Under the pieces are notes generated by a model. That model was not told where the DNA came from and made no database searches. It saw nothing but the letters and a program-made list of their open reading frames with translations. The position numbers and the translations under genes are program-made. This document shows, in pieces, positions 11,100 through 31,556 of a stretch of 64,000 nucleotides of DNA; the first letter of the stretch is position 1, and the number at the start of each line of letters is the position of its first letter. The stretch is from a virus: IMG/VR virus record IMGVR_UViG_3300017987_000063, positions 26,972 through 90,971 of that record, one strand, 5' to 3'.

Positions 11100-11127
11100 A
11101 TTATAGCATATATATTTAAAATGTCAA
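11100..11127 (-). promoter_or_regulatory. sigma70-type promoter, conserved-spacer family
   Basis: TTGACA-TTTTAAATATATATGC (16 bp)-TATAAT. Confidence 0.8.
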
Positions 11128-16138: not shown

Positions 16139-16727
16139 TCTCCGCTCCTATCGTAGCCGTTTTGCGCCACTGAACGCCTTTAAGCTCCAGCATTACCGCG
16201 CTTTCCATTAAAAGCGCCATGAAAGACTGGCTGTAACCCGCTTTTAAAAGGCCGGAAGGCGCGACATTCGTGGTTATCAAGGTAATCTGTAGGTTCTGCG
16301 CCCGCGCCCTTATAATTTCCTCAACTGTGGCCTCTGTAAAGCCGGACGCGGCCTTGTATTCCTTGCCGAGGTCGTCTATTACCAGAACGTCCACATCTAA
16401 AGCCCTGTCGTACCACGTGCCGCCCTCATCAAACTCCCGCTTGGCGATAATCATATCCCGAAGCTCCCCCGCCCTGACAAATAAAGCCGTGTAGCCCCTG
16501 CGCCGGTACTCTTTGGCGATGGCTATAGCCGCCGAGGTCTTTCCGGTTCCATTATCCCCCCACAGCACAATTCCTAATCCATCCCCATAATTATCGCGCT
16601 CAAGATACTCGATCAAGGTCTTCTTGTGTGTGGCTGTATCGGGAATTTGGGAAATGGAAACACCGTAGAACCTGCGGCCTACATGCATCCGCTCATAATC
16701 AGCTTGCTGGAGCTTCCGCCTTTTCAT
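16128..16727 (-). CDS. DnaC/IstB-like AAA+ helicase loader
   Basis: GDNGTGKT, LVIDDLGKE and ITTN. Confidence 0.88.
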   Translation of the reverse strand: MKRRKLQQADYERMHVGRRFYGVSISQIPDTATHKKTLIEYLERDNYGDGLGIVLWGDNGTGKTSAAIAIAKEYRRRGYTALFVRAGELRDMIIAKREFDEGGTWYDRALDVDVLVIDDLGKEYKAASGFTEATVEEIIRARAQNLQITLITTNVAPSGLLKAGYSQSFMALLMESAVMLELKGVQWRKTATIGAENGA

Positions 16728-19230: not shown

Positions 19231-19258
19231 ATTATAGCATATATTTTTATAATGTCAA
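19231..19258 (-). promoter_or_regulatory. sigma70-type promoter, conserved-spacer family
   Basis: TTGACA-TTATAAAAATATATGC (16 bp)-TATAAT. Confidence 0.8.
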
Positions 19259-21727: not shown

Positions 21728-21755
21728 ATTATAGCATATATATTTAAAACGTCAA
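21728..21755 (-). promoter_or_regulatory. sigma70-type promoter, conserved-spacer family
   Basis: TTGACG-TTTTAAATATATATGC (16 bp)-TATAAT. Confidence 0.78.
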
Positions 21756-23793: not shown

Positions 23794-23821
23794 ATTATAG
23801 CATATATATTTATAATGTCAA
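23794..23821 (-). promoter_or_regulatory. sigma70-type promoter, conserved-spacer family
   Basis: TTGACA-TTATAAATATATATGC (16 bp)-TATAAT. Confidence 0.8.
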
Positions 23822-24210
23822 TAGGTTTCGGAAAGAATATTCGCTTTTTCAGCAGATTCTTCATCCCGTACCCATTTTCCACCCTTTTTCACCTCGATCT
23901 TCAGGTTCTCCGCCCTCATAGCCCGCTCCGTAGCCTTTTCCACCTCGGCCTCAACCTGAACGACCTGTCCGGTCTTGATTTTTAGCCACCTCTGAAACTC
24001 CTTGCTTTGCGCCATGCGCTTAAACGCCAGCTTCTTGTTCTGCCTTTGATACCGCTCATCCTGTGCCGTGCCCACCGCTCCGCTTGGAGGATGGGTACAC
24101 CGAACGGCAGTGTCTCGCTTATTCCTGTTCTGCCCACCCGCGCCGCTCCCCCTGAAATAATCCCACTTACAATCGGCAGCGGTCACCGAAAAGAGTAATT
24201 TACGGCTCAT
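23818..24210 (-). CDS. Class I release-factor-like (RF-1 domain, GGQ) peptidyl-tRNA hydrolase
   Basis: RGSGAGGQNRNKRDTAVRCTHPPSG...DERYQRQNKKLA; no codon-recognition domain. Confidence 0.88.
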   Translation of the reverse strand: MSRKLLFSVTAADCKWDYFRGSGAGGQNRNKRDTAVRCTHPPSGAVGTAQDERYQRQNKKLAFKRMAQSKEFQRWLKIKTGQVVQVEAEVEKATERAMRAENLKIEVKKGGKWVRDEESAEKANILSETY

Positions 24211-24316: not shown

Positions 24317-24991
24317 TCATCCCGTACTCCTTCCTCTGCTTAATAATGCCTTCGCCATAGGCAGTAACTCCTTCCATTCATCGCCATACATCTTGGCGGG
24401 GTCTGGCTCTTCCCCGAACCGTACCCTGTCCAGCCTGTCCGCATTTGCAAAGCATATATCCAGTGTTCCGGCCTGAATACCCTCCCCCGGCTGTAGAAAA
24501 TCGTGCTTATTTATCGCCTCAGCCACGTATTCTATCCAGCGGGGGTCATACCCCCTGCGGGACGCAAACGCCCGCCACGTGGCCGCTCCTGCCGCCCCGT
24601 GCCCCTTTTCGGAGCCCTCTCCTTCCCTCATACAGTCATGGAAGAAGGCAGCCGTGGTCACGCCATACCGGATTATCTCCACATCGCGGAATATTTCGCC
24701 CTGCGGATACCGGTGGTTCTCGCACCACAATCCAGCCATAGCCCGCCCCAATATGGCCACCCTTACCCAATGAGCATAACCATGTAGCGGGGAATCCCAT
24801 TGCTGAAAAGCCCCCTCAATGGTCTCTCGCTCATGAGCGGTCAAGTGGAGCCACCTGTTAAAGTGAAACTCCACTTTTTGCCGGTGGTCTTCAACCTCAA
24901 ATCCGCTTAACACGATCCCCACCCTCCTATCAGCCAGAAGCTCTCCTCTGGAGTATCGGCTATTATTGGGATGGCCACCGCATATTCCCAC
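24317..24991 (-). CDS. HD-domain phosphohydrolase (start probably ~24914)
   Basis: HGYAHWVRV...FFHDC...HG...HD...ADRLD. Confidence 0.8.
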   Translation of the reverse strand: MGICGGHPNNSRYSRGELLADRRVGIVLSGFEVEDHRQKVEFHFNRWLHLTAHERETIEGAFQQWDSPLHGYAHWVRVAILGRAMAGLWCENHRYPQGEIFRDVEIIRYGVTTAAFFHDCMREGEGSEKGHGAAGAATWRAFASRRGYDPRWIEYVAEAINKHDFLQPGEGIQAGTLDICFANADRLDRVRFGEEPDPAKMYGDEWKELLPMAKALLSRGRSTG

Positions 24992-25532: not shown

Positions 25533-25555
25533 TGTCCTGTCCCCCTTTAACTATA

Positions 25556-25583
25556 ATTATAGCATATATATTTAAAATGTCAA
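25556..25583 (-). promoter_or_regulatory. sigma70-type promoter, conserved-spacer family
   Basis: TTGACA-TTTTAAATATATATGC (16 bp)-TATAAT. Confidence 0.8.
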
Positions 25584-25624
25584 GCATTTTCCAAAGGAAT
25601 TTGTGGAAAAAGCGAAGATTCAGA

Positions 25625-25707
25625 TAGCGGGGCGCGAATATTGACGTATTTTCCGCCCGGCTGCTGTTGAGCACTCCGCAGTCCGCCAAGAACTGCTTTA
25701 CCCCGCT
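25625..25707 (-). ncRNA. Degenerate tRNA-like element
   Basis: Acceptor stem AGCGGGG/CCCCGCU-A identical to the tRNA at 27013-27084 and a GCAGU/ACUGC arm. The other arms are non-canonical. Confidence 0.4.
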
Positions 25708-25709
25708 TT

Positions 25710-26385
25710 AACTTATACACAGGCAGGGTTGCGGAAGCGGCCCCGCGCCATCTCTACGTCCTCTGGTTGAGGCCCTCAATGTTACGCTTGCGTCCAGCCC
25801 GTTCGCCGGTTACCACTCGGCATACTCAACTGGACTGATTTTTCAGTGGTGGGGTTTGGCTACCTCTCGGCGACCTTTTCAGGTGTCCACGTCAACACAT
25901 GTCCGGTGTGCGTTCTTACACCGCCCCCGCCGGGCTCCACGCCAAGCAGGGGAAGGATTTTCACCTTACCTCCAGACTCTATGGCTCTGCGACCGCCATC
26001 CTGTCCACGTCTATAAGGGCTTACTGCCTCCACCGCCGTTCCGCTCCCATTTTTCAGGCTGTTTGCCGCAACCCTGTCTGTGTATAAATCTTATACGCTC
26101 AAGCGGGGGAGCGACCTTTCGGTCGCGTCCTGTGCCCGCTGGCTTACTCCACTGGCGGGAATGTCAACACCCGCATTTTCAATATGTTCCGGTTACATCA
26201 CAGCGGATTCACCCGCTTCAGCCTATAAAGTAACCGGTAAAAGGTGGGCAGCTTCAGGTGAGGCCCCGGTCGTCTATAGGTGCCTCTCAGATTCCGTTTG
26301 ACTTGTAATGCGTAACTTATAGCCGGGTATCCGACCGCCCGGCCTCCTTATGCCTCTGTGGGCATCTGGCATACGCCTCCCCCTT
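25710..26385 (-). ncRNA. Large structured ncRNA candidate (GOLLD/ROOL-like); ends approximate
   Basis: No credible minus-strand ORF over ~800 bp. A 22-bp long-range inverted repeat spans 25713-25734/26066-26087, with many nested hairpins such as GCGACC-GAAA-GGUCGC. A tRNA lies nearby. Confidence 0.6.
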
Positions 26386-26414
26386 TTTACCGATATTATT
26401 CAGATATTCAATTT

Positions 26415-26651
26415 TCAATGATCGTATAATTTGCTCTCGTACTCGTCAATCCATTCGTTGTATTTTTTATACCCGCCGATGGCCTCCGCCAGTGCGTCTA
26501 GTGTGTGGTGGAGCCCTGCATCGCGGGTCGTGCTCAATTCGTACATCAGCCTCTTGGCCATCTCCGCGTCCAGCTTTATGGTAACATCCGCGAAGTCTCC
26601 GATTTGGCTGGTGGTAACCTCAATGCCTTTTTCCTTTAACAGTCTTTTCAT
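26415..26651 (-). CDS. Hypothetical protein
   Basis: GGAGGACAGG leader. Confidence 0.7.
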   Translation of the reverse strand: MKRLLKEKGIEVTTSQIGDFADVTIKLDAEMAKRLMYELSTTRDAGLHHTLDALAEAIGGYKKYNEWIDEYESKLYDH

Positions 26652-26663
26652 GTCCTGTCCTCC

Positions 26664-26888
26664 TTAATAATCTTCCGGCTGCATGCCTTCAAAATCTTCA
26701 AGTTCCTGTTGGGCTAAAATGCTGTCCATTCCAGCCTCGGCCTCATCCTTCAGGGCTTGCTCAAAGCCCGCATCCCATAATCCCGCCCGCGTTCCATCAT
26801 CGTAAGGGTTATCTTCGGCCTCAAGGCCCTCAAGAGCCGCGTCATAACCTTCACTGTAAATGTCCTCATGGTCTTGTCCGTATCTCAT
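26664..26888 (-). CDS. Acidic small hypothetical protein
   Basis: GGAGGACAGG leader; GYDAA...NPY....WDAGF. Confidence 0.7.
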   Translation of the reverse strand: MRYGQDHEDIYSEGYDAALEGLEAEDNPYDDGTRAGLWDAGFEQALKDEAEAGMDSILAQQELEDFEGMQPEDY

Positions 26889-26937
26889 TGTCCTGTCCTC
26901 CTTGTTTTATTGGGCTTTTCTCGCCATCTTATATATA

Positions 26938-26965
26938 ATAATAGCATATATTTTTAAATTGTCAA
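26938..26965 (-). promoter_or_regulatory. sigma70-type promoter, conserved-spacer family
   Basis: TTGACA-ATTTAAAAATATATGC (16 bp)-TATTAT. Confidence 0.75.
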
Positions 26966-27012
26966 TACCTTTCCAGAATTATTTGCCGAAAAATTGCAGA
27001 TTCTTGGGGAAA

Positions 27013-27084
27013 TAGCGGGGGCAGGAGTTGAACCCACGATAGCCGGAATATGAATCCGGTGCCTTACCACTTGGCTACCCCGCT
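27013..27084 (-). tRNA. tRNA with anticodon CAU (Met or Ile2); CCA not encoded
   Basis: Full cloverleaf: AGCGGGG/CCCCGCU, D-arm GCC-AAGUGGUAA-GGC, CCGGA-UUCAUAU-UCCGG, and T-loop UUCAACU. Confidence 0.9.
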
Positions 27085-27089
27085 AAATC

Positions 27090-27118
27090 AAACGCCCCCG
27101 GTGGCGACGAGGGCGTTT
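27090..27118 (-). terminator. Hairpin after the last lysis-region gene (possible terminator)
   Basis: AAACGCCC/GGGCGTTT stem. Confidence 0.5.
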
Positions 27119-27159
27119 GTGAAAGGAGGATTCTTCCGGCAGTAAGCCAAGAAAAACCA

Positions 27160-27696
27160 CTAGAATTTAAGTATATCAAATCCGATGGCGAAATGCAAGC
27201 CCCGTTCGATAGGCTCATCCGGTGTCCAGCCGCAGCCCATCGTAAGGGTTAAAATCTCCGGTATAAGCTCCGTGCCTGTACCGATGATAATAACAGTCGC
27301 CCCCGCGCTCAACTCCACAAAGTCAGGCGCAATCACTTGCGCCCATTTTATCCATGTCCTGTTCGCGGGATTCTGGATTTGGGGAAAAAGGCGATACCGC
27401 GCTCCAATTGTAGGGGTAATAAGCGAATCTTCCCCAATAACCACTACGAAACCTCCTGTAATCTGTGGAAAGTACGTTGCCAGTTTCGCGCCGGGGTCAT
27501 CGGTTATCAGGTTGCCTTCGTCGTCGTAACGGAGCGGCGGTGCGCCTGCTTCCTCCGCGATAACCTCCGCCTCACTGTCATCCTGTCCAAACGCGCCATA
27601 AGGCAGTAAGAAAAGAATTGAGGTCATTAGGGTCAGGAGGATGCTTAATCTTTTCCCATGCCCGAAGGTACTGGACAAGTCGGTAAACTTTCGCAA
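27160..27696 (-). CDS. Exported protein, possibly a small outer-membrane beta-barrel
   Basis: Signal-peptide-like N-terminus, amphipathic strands and a C-terminal Phe. Confidence 0.55.
   Translation of the reverse strand: MRKFTDLSSTFGHGKRLSILLTLMTSILFLLPYGAFGQDDSEAEVIAEEAGAPPLRYDDEGNLITDDPGAKLATYFPQITGGFVVVIGEDSLITPTIGARYRLFPQIQNPANRTWIKWAQVIAPDFVELSAGATVIIIGTGTELIPEILTLTMGCGWTPDEPIERGLHFAIGFDILKF
27327..27342. repeat. 16-bp quasi-palindrome, copy 4
   Basis: Exact copy within a CDS, encoding AQVIA. Confidence 0.85.
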
Positions 27697-27831
27697 AGGC
27701 TTTTCTCCTATCTCGCTTCTGGAACCACTGGACGGCGGCCTGATTTACCAGCAGGGTCGCCGTTTCCAGCTTGGTTCCTTTAAGCCCTCCGGCCTTGCCG
27801 AGCATGTAAGCATACTGGGTAAGGCCGATAA

Positions 27832-28392
27832 TTACTTTTTTGGCGGCACCGAAGGGGTTTTTGTGGCCTTATTTCGCTCCTTAGACAACTGGGCGGCATG
27901 CTCCACCGCGCCGGTAAGCATGGAATCCACGTCCTGAACGCCTGCCTGTCCGAGCGCGAGCAGGGATGCGGGGCCGAGCATCTTCTTCATCTGCGTCAAC
28001 GCAAGACCCTTCAACTGGGTAATTTCGTCCTTTGTGAGCTTGCCATCGGCCTTAGCCGCCTTCATATCCTTGACATAAGCCTCATAAAGGTTCTCGGCCA
28101 CCCACCAAGCCGCCGTGTTGACGTTATCCAGTATCGAGGCCACCGCCTCATTCTGGACTTTGGCCTTTATCATACCGGAAACCGCCACCTTGCCCTTGAT
28201 AAACAGGGCGGAGATGATGGAACCGAAGATACCAGCCACTGCGACCACGATGGTTACGATGGTATCCAGTGTCGGGTCAACCGGTACATCCGTCGCGGGC
28301 GGCAGGGGAACCTCTGCGGTCTGTCCCAGCGCAATGGCTACCAGTCCCAGCACGAGCAGGGCGGAAAGCCCCAGCAAAATGTTCCGCTTCAT
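27832..28392 (-). CDS. Putative holin-like membrane protein
   Basis: Signal and TM segments plus the KAAKADGKLTKDE...IE.AV-like pattern, in the lysis cassette. Confidence 0.55.
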   Translation of the reverse strand: MKRNILLGLSALLVLGLVAIALGQTAEVPLPPATDVPVDPTLDTIVTIVVAVAGIFGSIISALFIKGKVAVSGMIKAKVQNEAVASILDNVNTAAWWVAENLYEAYVKDMKAAKADGKLTKDEITQLKGLALTQMKKMLGPASLLALGQAGVQDVDSMLTGAVEHAAQLSKERNKATKTPSVPPKK

Positions 28393-28826
28393 TACTCACC
28401 TCCCGTATAGGGCAGCGCAAGTATCGCCGTGCGTATTTTCATCTGCTCTTTTACGGGCAGCTTGGCATAAATGTCCATAAATAGCTGGGCTGTTGGAAGC
28501 TCTCCCGGCGATTCCTCGTCACCTTTTTCAATAGATTGAATCCACCACTCGGCCAGTAATGGAAGGGCCTGTGTAGCAGCGGTTTTAATGCACTCAGCAT
28601 TTTCATCGTAGTATTTGCACTGCTCCTCTGTCCACTTGCCGGTCTTGCATTGATTCCTTGCGGCGGTATCAAGGTAAGGCCAGCCGGTCTGGATACCTAT
28701 AGTCGCCACCTGAAAGCCAATTTCAATGGCTTGCTTCTGGTCGCACTGGGTCGCGCCGATTGTGACACCGCCTATGCCGAGGCATATTGCCAAGACAACC
28801 ACGATTCGCATCATTTTCGCTCTCAT
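28392..28826 (-). CDS. Putative lipoprotein in the lysis cassette
   Basis: Hydrophobic signal ending GATQC. Confidence 0.55.
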   Translation of the reverse strand: MRAKMMRIVVVLAICLGIGGVTIGATQCDQKQAIEIGFQVATIGIQTGWPYLDTAARNQCKTGKWTEEQCKYYDENAECIKTAATQALPLLAEWWIQSIEKGDEESPGELPTAQLFMDIYAKLPVKEQMKIRTAILALPYTGGE

Positions 28827-30212: not shown

Positions 30213-30824
30213 TTAAAGGGCCATCGCGGGCAATTTAAGGGCAGTTAATCTGTGTCCGCTCGCCCAAAACGACAACTCGAATGTTCTTGTGCCTGCAGCA
30301 CCTGCGGGCGTGAGGAATGCCTGAAGTCTGTCTCCCGGTAAAAGCATTATTCCTCCATACTTTAGATATTCGGTAGGAGTGGCTCCCACCCAATTCCAGC
30401 CGCTTGATTCATTCCAGTCGCCTGAAACATTATCAGCGGGGGTGCCTTTAGTGTGTTCGAACAAGTGAGTAGCGTATTTCCAATTTGCCGCAGGAATATA
30501 GACAGGCGATAAACCGGTCGTCCGGTAGACCTCTATTTTTGCCGTTCCCGCAGTAGCCCCTACCTGAAAGACCGTTTTTACATCGGTAACTATTACCACC
30601 TCGTTTGCCGGAACCACAGGACTTAAATTCCACAAAAGGCCATTATTTGTGATGGTCTGATAGGTATCGTGAAACTCCGAAATGCTTACTACCGGACTGT
30701 CCTGTCTATCTTTTATGTCCTGCAGCAAAGTTTCAAGAGCACCTGTGTTGGTCTCAATAGCGGTCAATAAGGCAAGAAACTCCTCGTCCCCGCCAATAAC
30801 CTTCGGTAAATAGTTTTTAACCAT
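30213..30824 (-). CDS. Putative virion / tail-fibre-associated protein
   Basis: Position at the end of the tail module; beta-rich. Confidence 0.55.
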   Translation of the reverse strand: MVKNYLPKVIGGDEEFLALLTAIETNTGALETLLQDIKDRQDSPVVSISEFHDTYQTITNNGLLWNLSPVVPANEVVIVTDVKTVFQVGATAGTAKIEVYRTTGLSPVYIPAANWKYATHLFEHTKGTPADNVSGDWNESSGWNWVGATPTEYLKYGGIMLLPGDRLQAFLTPAGAAGTRTFELSFWASGHRLTALKLPAMAL

Positions 30825-30836
30825 CTCTATTCTCCT

Positions 30837-31556
30837 TTAGGCCACCAGACTGTCAATGGCCTGCGTAAACTTGGAAATCTCGCGGGGATAGTCTCCAAAG
30901 TCCGCAAGGTTCCCCGCGCCGGACGTAAAGCCCAAGAGAGCGGATACATCGTTGCTGGCAGGGGTAATTATCTCCACGCTGCCGGGGCCTGTGGCGTTTT
31001 TAGAGCGTATTCCAAGCTGCCTGCTATCCCCCACCTGCGCCGCAAAAGCCTCGGCAAGCGTATTAAACGCGACCAGTGAATTCAGATAATCCACAATCCC
31101 CGGCCCCACAGCATCCTCCTGTACCAGTCTTCCAGCCGTAGGGGTAAGGTCAATATCAACCAACGGCAAACCATCAATCTGAAACTTCACGTTGGCCGGA
31201 GAGCTTGGGAAAGTCACCGGATAGCTTGTCCCCGCCGAAATAAGCTCTGCCATTGTATCGTAAGCATGAAGGCCGGGATTCCACGGAGAATCTGACCCCA
31301 GCGTCAATATCCGGCGCATACCCCGTACCATCCAAAGGCCATAATTCACCGCCGAAAGCATGTTTTTAAAAAAGTACGGAATATGGTTGATATTCGTCAA
31401 TGGAGAGGCCACCGGAAAGCCGAAAGACTGCCGAACAGACTCCTCAAAATTCGGTATTTGGCCTTGTGGCACAGCCCATACCGCCTTAATGTCATAAGGC
31501 GCGGCTGCTGCCCATTCTACCACCACAAGTTGGTCAAGTTTTGGTCTGATTATCAT
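30837..31556 (-). CDS. Putative virion protein
   Basis: C-terminal beta domain resembling the capsid insertion. Confidence 0.55.
   Translation of the reverse strand: MIIRPKLDQLVVVEWAAAAPYDIKAVWAVPQGQIPNFEESVRQSFGFPVASPLTNINHIPYFFKNMLSAVNYGLWMVRGMRRILTLGSDSPWNPGLHAYDTMAELISAGTSYPVTFPSSPANVKFQIDGLPLVDIDLTPTAGRLVQEDAVGPGIVDYLNSLVAFNTLAEAFAAQVGDSRQLGIRSKNATGPGSVEIITPASNDVSALLGFTSGAGNLADFGDYPREISKFTQAIDSLVA

Follow-up and report, generated by a model that had tools for sequence, protein, structure and literature searches.

A candidate modular RNA locus near a tRNA gene in an uncultivated myovirus-like phage

Genomic setting of the locus

The window analyzed here is a stretch of 64,000 nucleotides that corresponds to bases 26972-90971 of a 90,971-base IMG/VR record, the completeness of which is estimated to be 63%. 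The record encodes a tail sheath, baseplate, tape measure, portal/terminase, family A DNA polymerase, and DnaB-like helicase. These genes indicate that the source is an uncultivated, myovirus-like phage of sediment and seawater; DNA identical to the RNA stretch described below is present in sediment and seawater metagenomes from several studies. Essentially every long open reading frame (ORF) of the window is located on the minus strand. The rest of the record includes genes for methylases, ParB, RecA, RuvC, and CobT/MoxR-like and DRAT-like proteins, as well as a LAGLIDADG domain, and contains no RNA ligase and no Ro-like gene. Upstream of the window, the DRAT-like ADP-ribosyltransferase gene is positioned at L245:9786-10673 (minus strand; a weak match of 27 bits), and a pair of CobT-VWA and MoxR/CbbQ-type AAA genes occupies L245:17883-19901 and L246:419-1255 (both minus strand). 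A second tRNA gene of the record, a 71-nucleotide tRNA-Ser(UGA) called by ARAGORN, is also outside the window, at record bases 16657-16727 (minus strand).

The RNA locus is preceded, at a distance of 0.6 kb, by a tRNA-Met gene, and two protein genes are located in between (Table 1). The product of the first of them is a borderline candidate for a relative of ribosome modulation factor (RMF), and from the known occurrence of RMF the host may be a gammaproteobacterium. The second gene, directly upstream of the RNA locus, encodes a 78-aa protein, the sole match of which among 5.8 billion protein clusters is the protein itself. The neighborhood also includes a stand-alone, ArfB-like RF-1/GGQ domain protein and an HD-domain protein. 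The RMF-like, RF-1-domain, and HD-domain proteins have no tblastn match in the four closest relatives of the phage (G001-G004), and the syntenic place in the closest relative (60% capsid identity) is densely coding. The segment from approximately 23.7 to 28.9 kb is apparently an accessory insertion that is specific to this phage (window positions).

A 24-nt motif, composed of a perfect TTGACA, an A/T-rich spacer, and the extended -10 sequence TGCTATAAT, occurs six times in the window, whereas zero copies are expected by chance. It is therefore taken to be the early promoter of the phage. Blocks of small early genes are preceded by the six copies. DNA contigs from other sources have only this motif in common (loose ends at 25555 and 25591). 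According to the promoter and terminator scan, the RNA locus lacks a strong promoter or terminator of its own, and the transcript carrying the two small ORFs together with the RNA likely starts at the promoter copy in front of them. The next copy, which bounds the locus on its other side, is predicted to drive a 44-aa ORF at 25532-25398 (minus strand). The locus ends with a weak A/U hairpin, which is unconvincing as a terminator; the scan found no terminator on the minus strand.

Table 1. Features of the RNA locus and its surroundings, in window positions.
Feature	Position	Strand	Evidence
tRNA-Met(CAU) gene, upstream of the RNA locus	27012-27085	minus	Rfam tRNA, 64.7 bits; ARAGORN
Early-promoter copy (TTGACA, 16 nt, TATTAT, with TG)	26938-26965	minus	promoter scan, 11/12
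74-aa ORF, RMF-like	26664-26888	minus	Pfam PF04957, 27.1 bits versus cut-off of 27.9, E = 4.5e-6
78-aa ORFan, directly upstream of the RNA locus	26415-26651	minus	no Pfam match
D0: 14-nt imperfect closing stem (26392-26379 with 26248-26235) around ~130 nt	26235-26392	minus	inverted repeat I7; pair probability 0.77-0.97
D1: 17/20 closing stem (26228-26209 with 26110-26091), four-way junction	26091-26228	minus	inverted repeat I2; z = -5.0, -4.6
D2: 22-25-bp closing helix (26090-26066 with 25734-25710)	25710-26090	minus	inverted repeat I1; pair probabilities 0.98-1.0
tRNA-like 3' module	25626-25707	minus	alignment to tRNA-Met; fold z = -2.1
Weak A/U hairpin at the end of the locus	25584-25613	minus	fold -7.1 kcal/mol, z = -1.7
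Next early-promoter copy, bounding the RNA locus	25556-25583	minus	12/12 match; 24-nt motif
HD-domain protein gene	24317-24991	minus	domain match
Stand-alone RF-1/GGQ domain protein, 130 aa, ArfB-like	23818-24210	minus	E = 1e-18
24-nt promoter-like motif, six copies	11104-11127, 19235-19258, 21732-21755, 23798-23821, 25560-25583, 26942-26965	minus	

A gap in the coding strand

The region had been noticed as the largest gap without a credible minus-strand ORF in a densely coding genome. The gap is larger than first claimed, with a length of 831 nt (26414-25584), and is the sole one of such size on the coding strand. It is limited by the stop codon of the 78-aa ORF (26415) and the promoter copy at 25583. 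No long minus-strand ORF is present in the gap, either under genetic code 11 or when TAG, TGA, or TAA is treated as a sense codon, and codon-usage scores are about zero or negative in all frames. The stretch 26414-25584 is non-coding.

It is most improbable that the gap encodes one or two very small proteins, namely a 57-aa ORF with a GTG start (26033-25860, minus strand), which is its one ORF of note, and/or a 32-aa ORF starting from the ATG at 26368. The codon score of the 57-aa ORF, 0.285, is inside the range of real small genes; however, a natural variant of the sequence carries a one-nucleotide insertion within it. The 32-aa ORF has a GGGGGAGG run 3 nt ahead of its ATG, but this spacer is much shorter than that at the real starts of the phage (GGAGGACAGGAC before ATG), and its codon score of -0.18 is the lowest. 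The two ORFs together would account for at most a third of the gap.

Predicted modules of the RNA

Read as a minus-strand RNA, the locus most likely consists of four abutting modules, each of which is closed by its own stem: D0, D1, D2, and a tRNA-like module, in the 5' to 3' direction of the model. The linkers between the modules are 6, 0, and 2 nt long, and therefore the closing helices can stack on each other. This anatomy looks less like the single large RNA that had been envisaged than like a string of separately closed, possibly cleavable units. The modules have no significant self-similarity that would identify them as internal duplicates.

D0 is the weakest of the modules, with a z-score of -1.9. 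Approximately one stem such as that closing D0 is expected by chance (an estimate), and the module is insignificant alone. By contrast, the pair probabilities in D1 are 0.95-1.0, and the module includes a perfect 6-bp hairpin, GCGACC-GAAA-GGUCGC, at 26126-26111. The nested stems that the initial annotation listed upstream of the long inverted repeat hold in part. The set AGCGGG..GCGACC-GAAA-GGUCGC..CCCGCU corresponds to D1 (26218-26101), whereas the stem CCGGUUAC/GUAACCGG with its AGCGG/CCGCU competes with the D1 closing stem, which is preferred by the ensemble with a pair probability of 0.99. Therefore, the listed stems cannot all coexist. In addition, segment 26108-26092 can pair with 25717-25701 (inverted repeat I3) in place of its D1 partner. 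Because of these two competing pairings, alternative folds of the RNA are possible.

D2 is bounded by the inverted repeat that the initial annotation described as 21/22 bp long. Its arms, 25713-25734 and 26066-26087, are 22 nt long, 95% complementary, and 331 nt apart; the number of arm pairs of such quality expected by chance in 831 nt is estimated to be ~1e-6. The closing helix contains one A.C mismatch on the minus strand, which is a G.U pair on the plus strand. Past the closing helix, the module continues with an 8-bp helix (26048-26041 with 25740-25733) and an interior of several hairpins, with GAAA and GAGA loops and a recurring UGAAAA. The short hairpins previously listed for this interior are present on the minus strand: AAGG-UGAAAAU-CCUU at 25967-25953, CGGUGU/ACACCG at 25923-25904, and ACCU-GAAA-AGGU at 25884-25873.

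As an intergenic segment of 375 bp between 22-bp inverted repeats, D2 is built like an invertible switch, and the repeats are equally good as DNA, with the single arm mismatch giving no preference for a minus-strand RNA. The region could thus function at the level of DNA, with D2 as an invertible segment or the region as a replication origin or packaging site. We consider this very unlikely. The 91-kb record, which is 63% complete, lacks Resolvase and Phage_integrase domains and hence a serine or tyrosine recombinase, and neither strand of D2 contains an internal promoter-like site. In two runs, DNA contigs connect the interior of the segment with its exterior in the reference orientation only, with no strand-changing joint. 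Furthermore, the region lacks iterons, is not AT-rich, and does not contain a turn in the cumulative GC skew.

Several short sequences of the predicted minus-strand RNA have been evaluated individually. The hexamer UAUAAG is positioned right after the 3' strand of three stems of the locus (26095-26090, 25717-25712, and 26321-26316); it occurs three times in 830 nt, compared with ~0.3 expected, and also follows the long stem of a structured element in the related phage G003. The hexamer may serve as a processing signal or simply belong to the palindromic stem ends. Mimicry of the sarcin-ricin loop by GCC-GAGA-GGU was rejected, as this site lacks the bulged-G motif, and mimicry of anticodon loops by the UGAAAA loops was rejected because of their inconsistent loop registers.

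Stability of the fold

The 519 nt of D1 and D2 (25710-26228) fold with z-scores of -6.3 on the minus strand and -4.7 on the plus strand. For the whole 861 nt, the values are -5.4 and -4.1, and for the whole of D2 -5.3 and -4.2. In 21 coding windows of the same length and strand that served as controls, the mean z-score is -0.44 with a standard deviation of 1.45 and a minimum of -3.1. With -6.3 against this minimum, the locus is a clear outlier in folding. The long-range helices have pair probabilities of 0.9-1.0. However, without its closing stems, the interior of D2 has z-scores of -1.96 on the minus strand (3 of 100 shuffled sequences are as good) and -0.4 on the plus strand, and the interior of D1 has a z-score of -2.0. 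Since the interiors reach only about -2 once the closing stems are removed, the exceptional score originates mainly from the nested long-range helices. The earlier description of the region as highly structured is thus justified by comparison with coding controls, whereas the signal resides mainly in the long closing helices. The interiors of the modules are only modestly stable relative to shuffled sequence, though strand-specifically.

The minus strand is supported by the position of all genes and all six promoter copies. As the initial annotation proposed from the GAAA loops, GNRA tetraloops (GAAA and GAGA) are found solely on this transcribed strand. Two motifs are enriched and located mostly in loops: CUGAA occurs 7 times compared with 0.9 expected, and UGAAAA 5 times compared with 0.7 expected.

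RNase III cuts the processing stalks of rRNA operons and the early RNA of phage T7. The D2 helix resembles these stalks in that 22-25 bp are formed by sequences flanking a folded RNA within a longer transcript. It differs from them in enclosing a 330-nt RNA that is neither rRNA nor mRNA, and cleavage is only predicted here. The first of two serious alternatives is that the early transcript contains a structured spacer acting in cis, the stems of which would provide only RNase III or other processing and stability sites to separate or protect the neighboring mRNAs, as in T7, without any RNA acting in trans. Such a spacer would be consistent with the position of the locus between two promoter copies in an operon-like early region and its lack of a promoter or terminator of its own, with a folding signal mostly in the long closing helices, and with the failure to find a homolog, as expected of a fast-evolving spacer. 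However, the processing sites known from phages consist of one hairpin with a length of tens of nucleotides, whereas this locus occupies 830 nt of a compact genome. Moreover, the module interiors have GNRA loops and enriched motifs, and a tRNA-derived module has been kept at the 3' end. We regard the cis-acting spacer as unlikely.

Relationship to tRNA

In the reading of the locus as a modular RNA, the 3'-terminal module is related to tRNA. It matches tRNA-Met in the 7-bp acceptor stem, the UA at positions 8-9, and the discriminator A, and folds as an acceptor stem with three aberrant arms. Its 5' sequence AGCGGGGUA and 3' sequence CCCCGCUA, which are 9-nt strings, are identical to those of the tRNA-Met 1.3 kb upstream. 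Nevertheless, every detector rejects the module as a true tRNA with a cloverleaf of D, anticodon, and T arms: it has no match to Rfam tRNA (RF00005) at E-values up to 10, and ARAGORN makes no call even at relaxed thresholds.

The tRNA-like sequence is not restricted to the 3' module. In the closing stem of D1, the inner 6 bp (AGCGGG/CCCGCU) are those of the tRNA-Met acceptor stem, and a long hairpin abuts the 3' strand of this closing stem, as a T arm would. The sequence CCCCGCU occurs three times in 1.65 kb, compared with 0.2 per kb genome-wide. From the shared acceptor strings and the recurring AGCGGG/CCCGCU, we infer that some of the locus is derived from tRNA genes that were duplicated. 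The parts with this origin may still use tRNA-end processing.

Elements that resemble tRNA are known from the 3' ends of other RNAs, for example, mascRNA of MALAT1. As in those cases, the module of the phage places a mimic of an acceptor stem right after a larger RNA, where RNase P would make the 3' end. Unlike them, it contains neither a T-loop nor a recognizable T arm.

Comparison with known RNA families

The family of the RNA could not be assigned by eye in the initial annotation, and no Rfam 15 family matches it. A cmscan of the whole window against 4227 Rfam 15 families at gathering scores reported the real tRNA only, and a scan of the region in four pieces with E-values up to 10 yielded chance-level matches only. 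The weak matches to RAGATH-5 (17 bits), skipping-rope (16.5 bits), and tsr31 (20 bits) were dismissed as chance. Group I and group II introns, RNase P RNA, tmRNA, OLE, and HEARO have no Rfam match, and ARAGORN makes no tmRNA call. An intron is also disfavored because the flanking ORFs are complete genes and not split exons.

GOLLD and ROOL rank with the largest RNAs for which no function is known. The similarity to them in size and proximity to a tRNA gene, suggested at the outset, holds for the 831-nt gap in a phage record with tRNA-Met 0.6 kb upstream. GOLLD, which was tested as part of the all-family Rfam 15 scans, has no match either in the window at gathering scores or in the pieces of the region at E-values up to 10. 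The locus is like GOLLD in its size of ~0.8 kb, phage carrier, tRNA neighborhood, multi-domain organization, and many A-rich loops. By contrast, the conserved 3' half of GOLLD is unrecognizable in the locus, and two protein genes separate the tRNA from the RNA. Assembly into cages is a feature on the side of GOLLD. GOLLD and ROOL are often located near phage or prophage tRNA genes, and tRNAs are sometimes found inside GOLLD RNA (10.1101/2024.12.08.627333). The marine GOLLD env-38 is downstream of a Met-tRNA (10.1101/2024.12.08.627333).

The model of ROOL (RF03087) has no match at E-values up to 10 in the 91-kb record, in a search without a positive control (it also has no match in 14 control genomes), which therefore counts for little by itself; the scans with all families concur. 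The locus and ROOL are alike as large, ornate RNAs carried by phages or prophages near tRNA islands. However, ROOL forms one pseudoknotted fold, whereas the locus is predicted to be a chain of separately closed modules.

Contigs from RNA and DNA libraries

Four metatranscriptome runs from one sediment study contain approximately a quarter of the sequence words of the stretch. In a comparison with 10 kb of the window, two of these runs provided contigs of 295 nt (25745-26038) and 244 nt (25771-26011) that are ~98% identical to it, and one run also yielded a piece of the HD gene. These contigs, which show neither ends nor strand and give no ranking of genes, are a weak hint of transcription and no proof. 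They are positioned inside D2 only, short of its closing stems, which would fit the excision of D2. This position is not counted as evidence, given the low depth of the contigs, their origin in one study, and the choice of the runs by this very stretch.

The ~98% variant has the same three differences in both runs, all of which are in the hairpin 25999-25981 (minus strand). C25995 is changed to U, which keeps the top pair as U.G instead of C-G, one base is inserted in the loop, and A25988 in the loop is changed to G. These changes are as a constrained helix would allow, but they represent a single event.

DNA contigs from runs X6 and X7, one in each, join position 25613 to 28433. They skip 2819 bases, which contain the RNA, two ORFs, the tRNA, and two membrane-protein genes. 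Since the shorter side of the joint comprises no more than 21 letters, the joint is most likely a repeat artefact, caused by the repeated promoter, rather than a deletion variant.

Search for relatives

No homolog of the RNA was found by BLAST, two covariance models, and six DNA-pattern scans, in searches that left out records very close to this genome (strain variants). Blastn provided no match among PLSDB plasmids or INPHARED phages, the latter giving junk only at E-values up to 10. Searches for IMG/VR loci with the 78-aa, HD, sheath, and capsid-like proteins singly gave nothing useful. Alignment of the capsid-like protein, which belongs to a clade of relatives with 40-61% identity, retrieved 64 IMG/VR records. 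The RNA is absent from 41 related records according to both BLAST and a covariance model of D1 (R1), and a model of the D2 core (R2) found no homolog in 65 related records. The single R2 match (15 bits, record G038) was rejected because of broken pairs and deleted stems.

The pattern scans, which covered collections of viruses, metagenomes, and genomes, were similarly negative. The doubled GACGTGGACA gave 21 junk matches; the 20-mer from the D2 core 0 matches in metagenomes; a purine/pyrimidine hybrid of the junction 1 junk match; and a second hybrid pattern 1 junk match. The doubled CTGAAAAAT gave at least 115 junk matches, and 0 of the 80 loci screened among those listed matched R2. The inverted-repeat arm was searched in 185,579 species genomes and had 1 chance match with no further similarity.

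The closest related phage, G003, has its own 681-nt ORF-free stretch at another genome position, bases 30291-30971 (plus strand; L115:10291-10971). The stretch includes an internal consensus TTGACA-17-TATAAT promoter and a ~20-bp long-range stem followed by CUAUAAGG, folds with a z-score of -5.2, and has no Rfam match. It was rejected as a relative of the RNA locus because it is not homologous.

The second serious alternative is that the region is a remnant without function, for instance, a tRNA array in decay, the remains of a gene, or a recently inserted miniature inverted-repeat element, and that its inverted repeats are historical accidents. The absence of the region from relatives would be consistent with a remnant, as would the acceptor-stem strings recurring three times and the broken tRNA that constitutes the 3' module. 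The 22-bp arms resemble terminal inverted repeats, and their palindromic TTATA...TATAA ends permit a TA target duplication, with no longer direct repeat abutting the arms; the phage is also full of mobile elements, as seen from the LAGLIDADG domain. However, the 91-kb record contains no second copy of any part of the RNA, and the lone match of the arm in the species genomes is due to chance. The near-perfect 22-bp helix, the abutting 17/20 helix, and the strand-specific GNRA loops are unlike random decay, and the changes in the variant spare the helix. A remnant is quite unlikely.

Proposed function and implications

The best explanation of the observations as a whole is a minus-strand non-coding RNA locus that is transcribed early, folds into modules, and acts in trans, to which we assign a probability of roughly one half. 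We hold with moderate confidence that it is plausible for the locus to be a new phage RNA locus that is similar to GOLLD and ROOL but unrelated to them. It is a candidate for a new family within the large phage RNAs located next to tRNA genes. As an orphan for which no homolog was retrieved, it is for now a candidate rather than a discovery.

In the proposed mechanism, the RMF-like gene, the 78-aa gene, and the locus would be co-transcribed at an early stage of infection, starting from the promoter at 26965. The RNA would fold into the consecutive modules D0, D1, and D2 and end in the tRNA-derived module. RNase III of the host would cut the 22-25-bp helix of D2 in the manner of rRNA stalks and T7 early RNA (the 91-kb record, 63% complete, has no RNase III gene), and RNase P and RNase Z would cut at the acceptor-like stems. 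The cuts would release at least one stable folded RNA of ~140-380 nt. The released RNAs would act in trans on the translation or RNA-processing machinery of the host, as a scaffold or decoy, which parallels what is proposed, yet to be demonstrated, for GOLLD and ROOL. Action on translation or RNA-processing factors is suggested by the neighbors of the locus, which are a tRNA, the RMF-like protein, the stand-alone RF-1 domain, and the HD protein.

A bolder extension of this mechanism, which we put forward tentatively and consider possible but doubtful, is that the locus founds a new class of large phage RNAs that are linked to tRNA, modular, and excised from an early transcript, and that, in the manner of GOLLD and ROOL, build a higher-order RNA particle or decoy directed against the translation or RNA-repair machinery of the host. 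The assembly of a particle could use self-complementary ACCGGU strings, three of which are found in loops or linkers, at about 26238-26233, 26193-26189, and 25811-25806.

Unrelated examples of large phage RNAs help to sort the essential from the incidental among their shared features: tRNA linkage, closed modules, A-rich loops, and neighbors that resemble translation factors. To these, the locus described here adds a clear tRNA-derived 3' module and the reuse of an acceptor-stem sequence to close another domain, which suggest that RNAs of this kind can originate from tRNA gene duplicates and make use of the enzymes that process tRNA.
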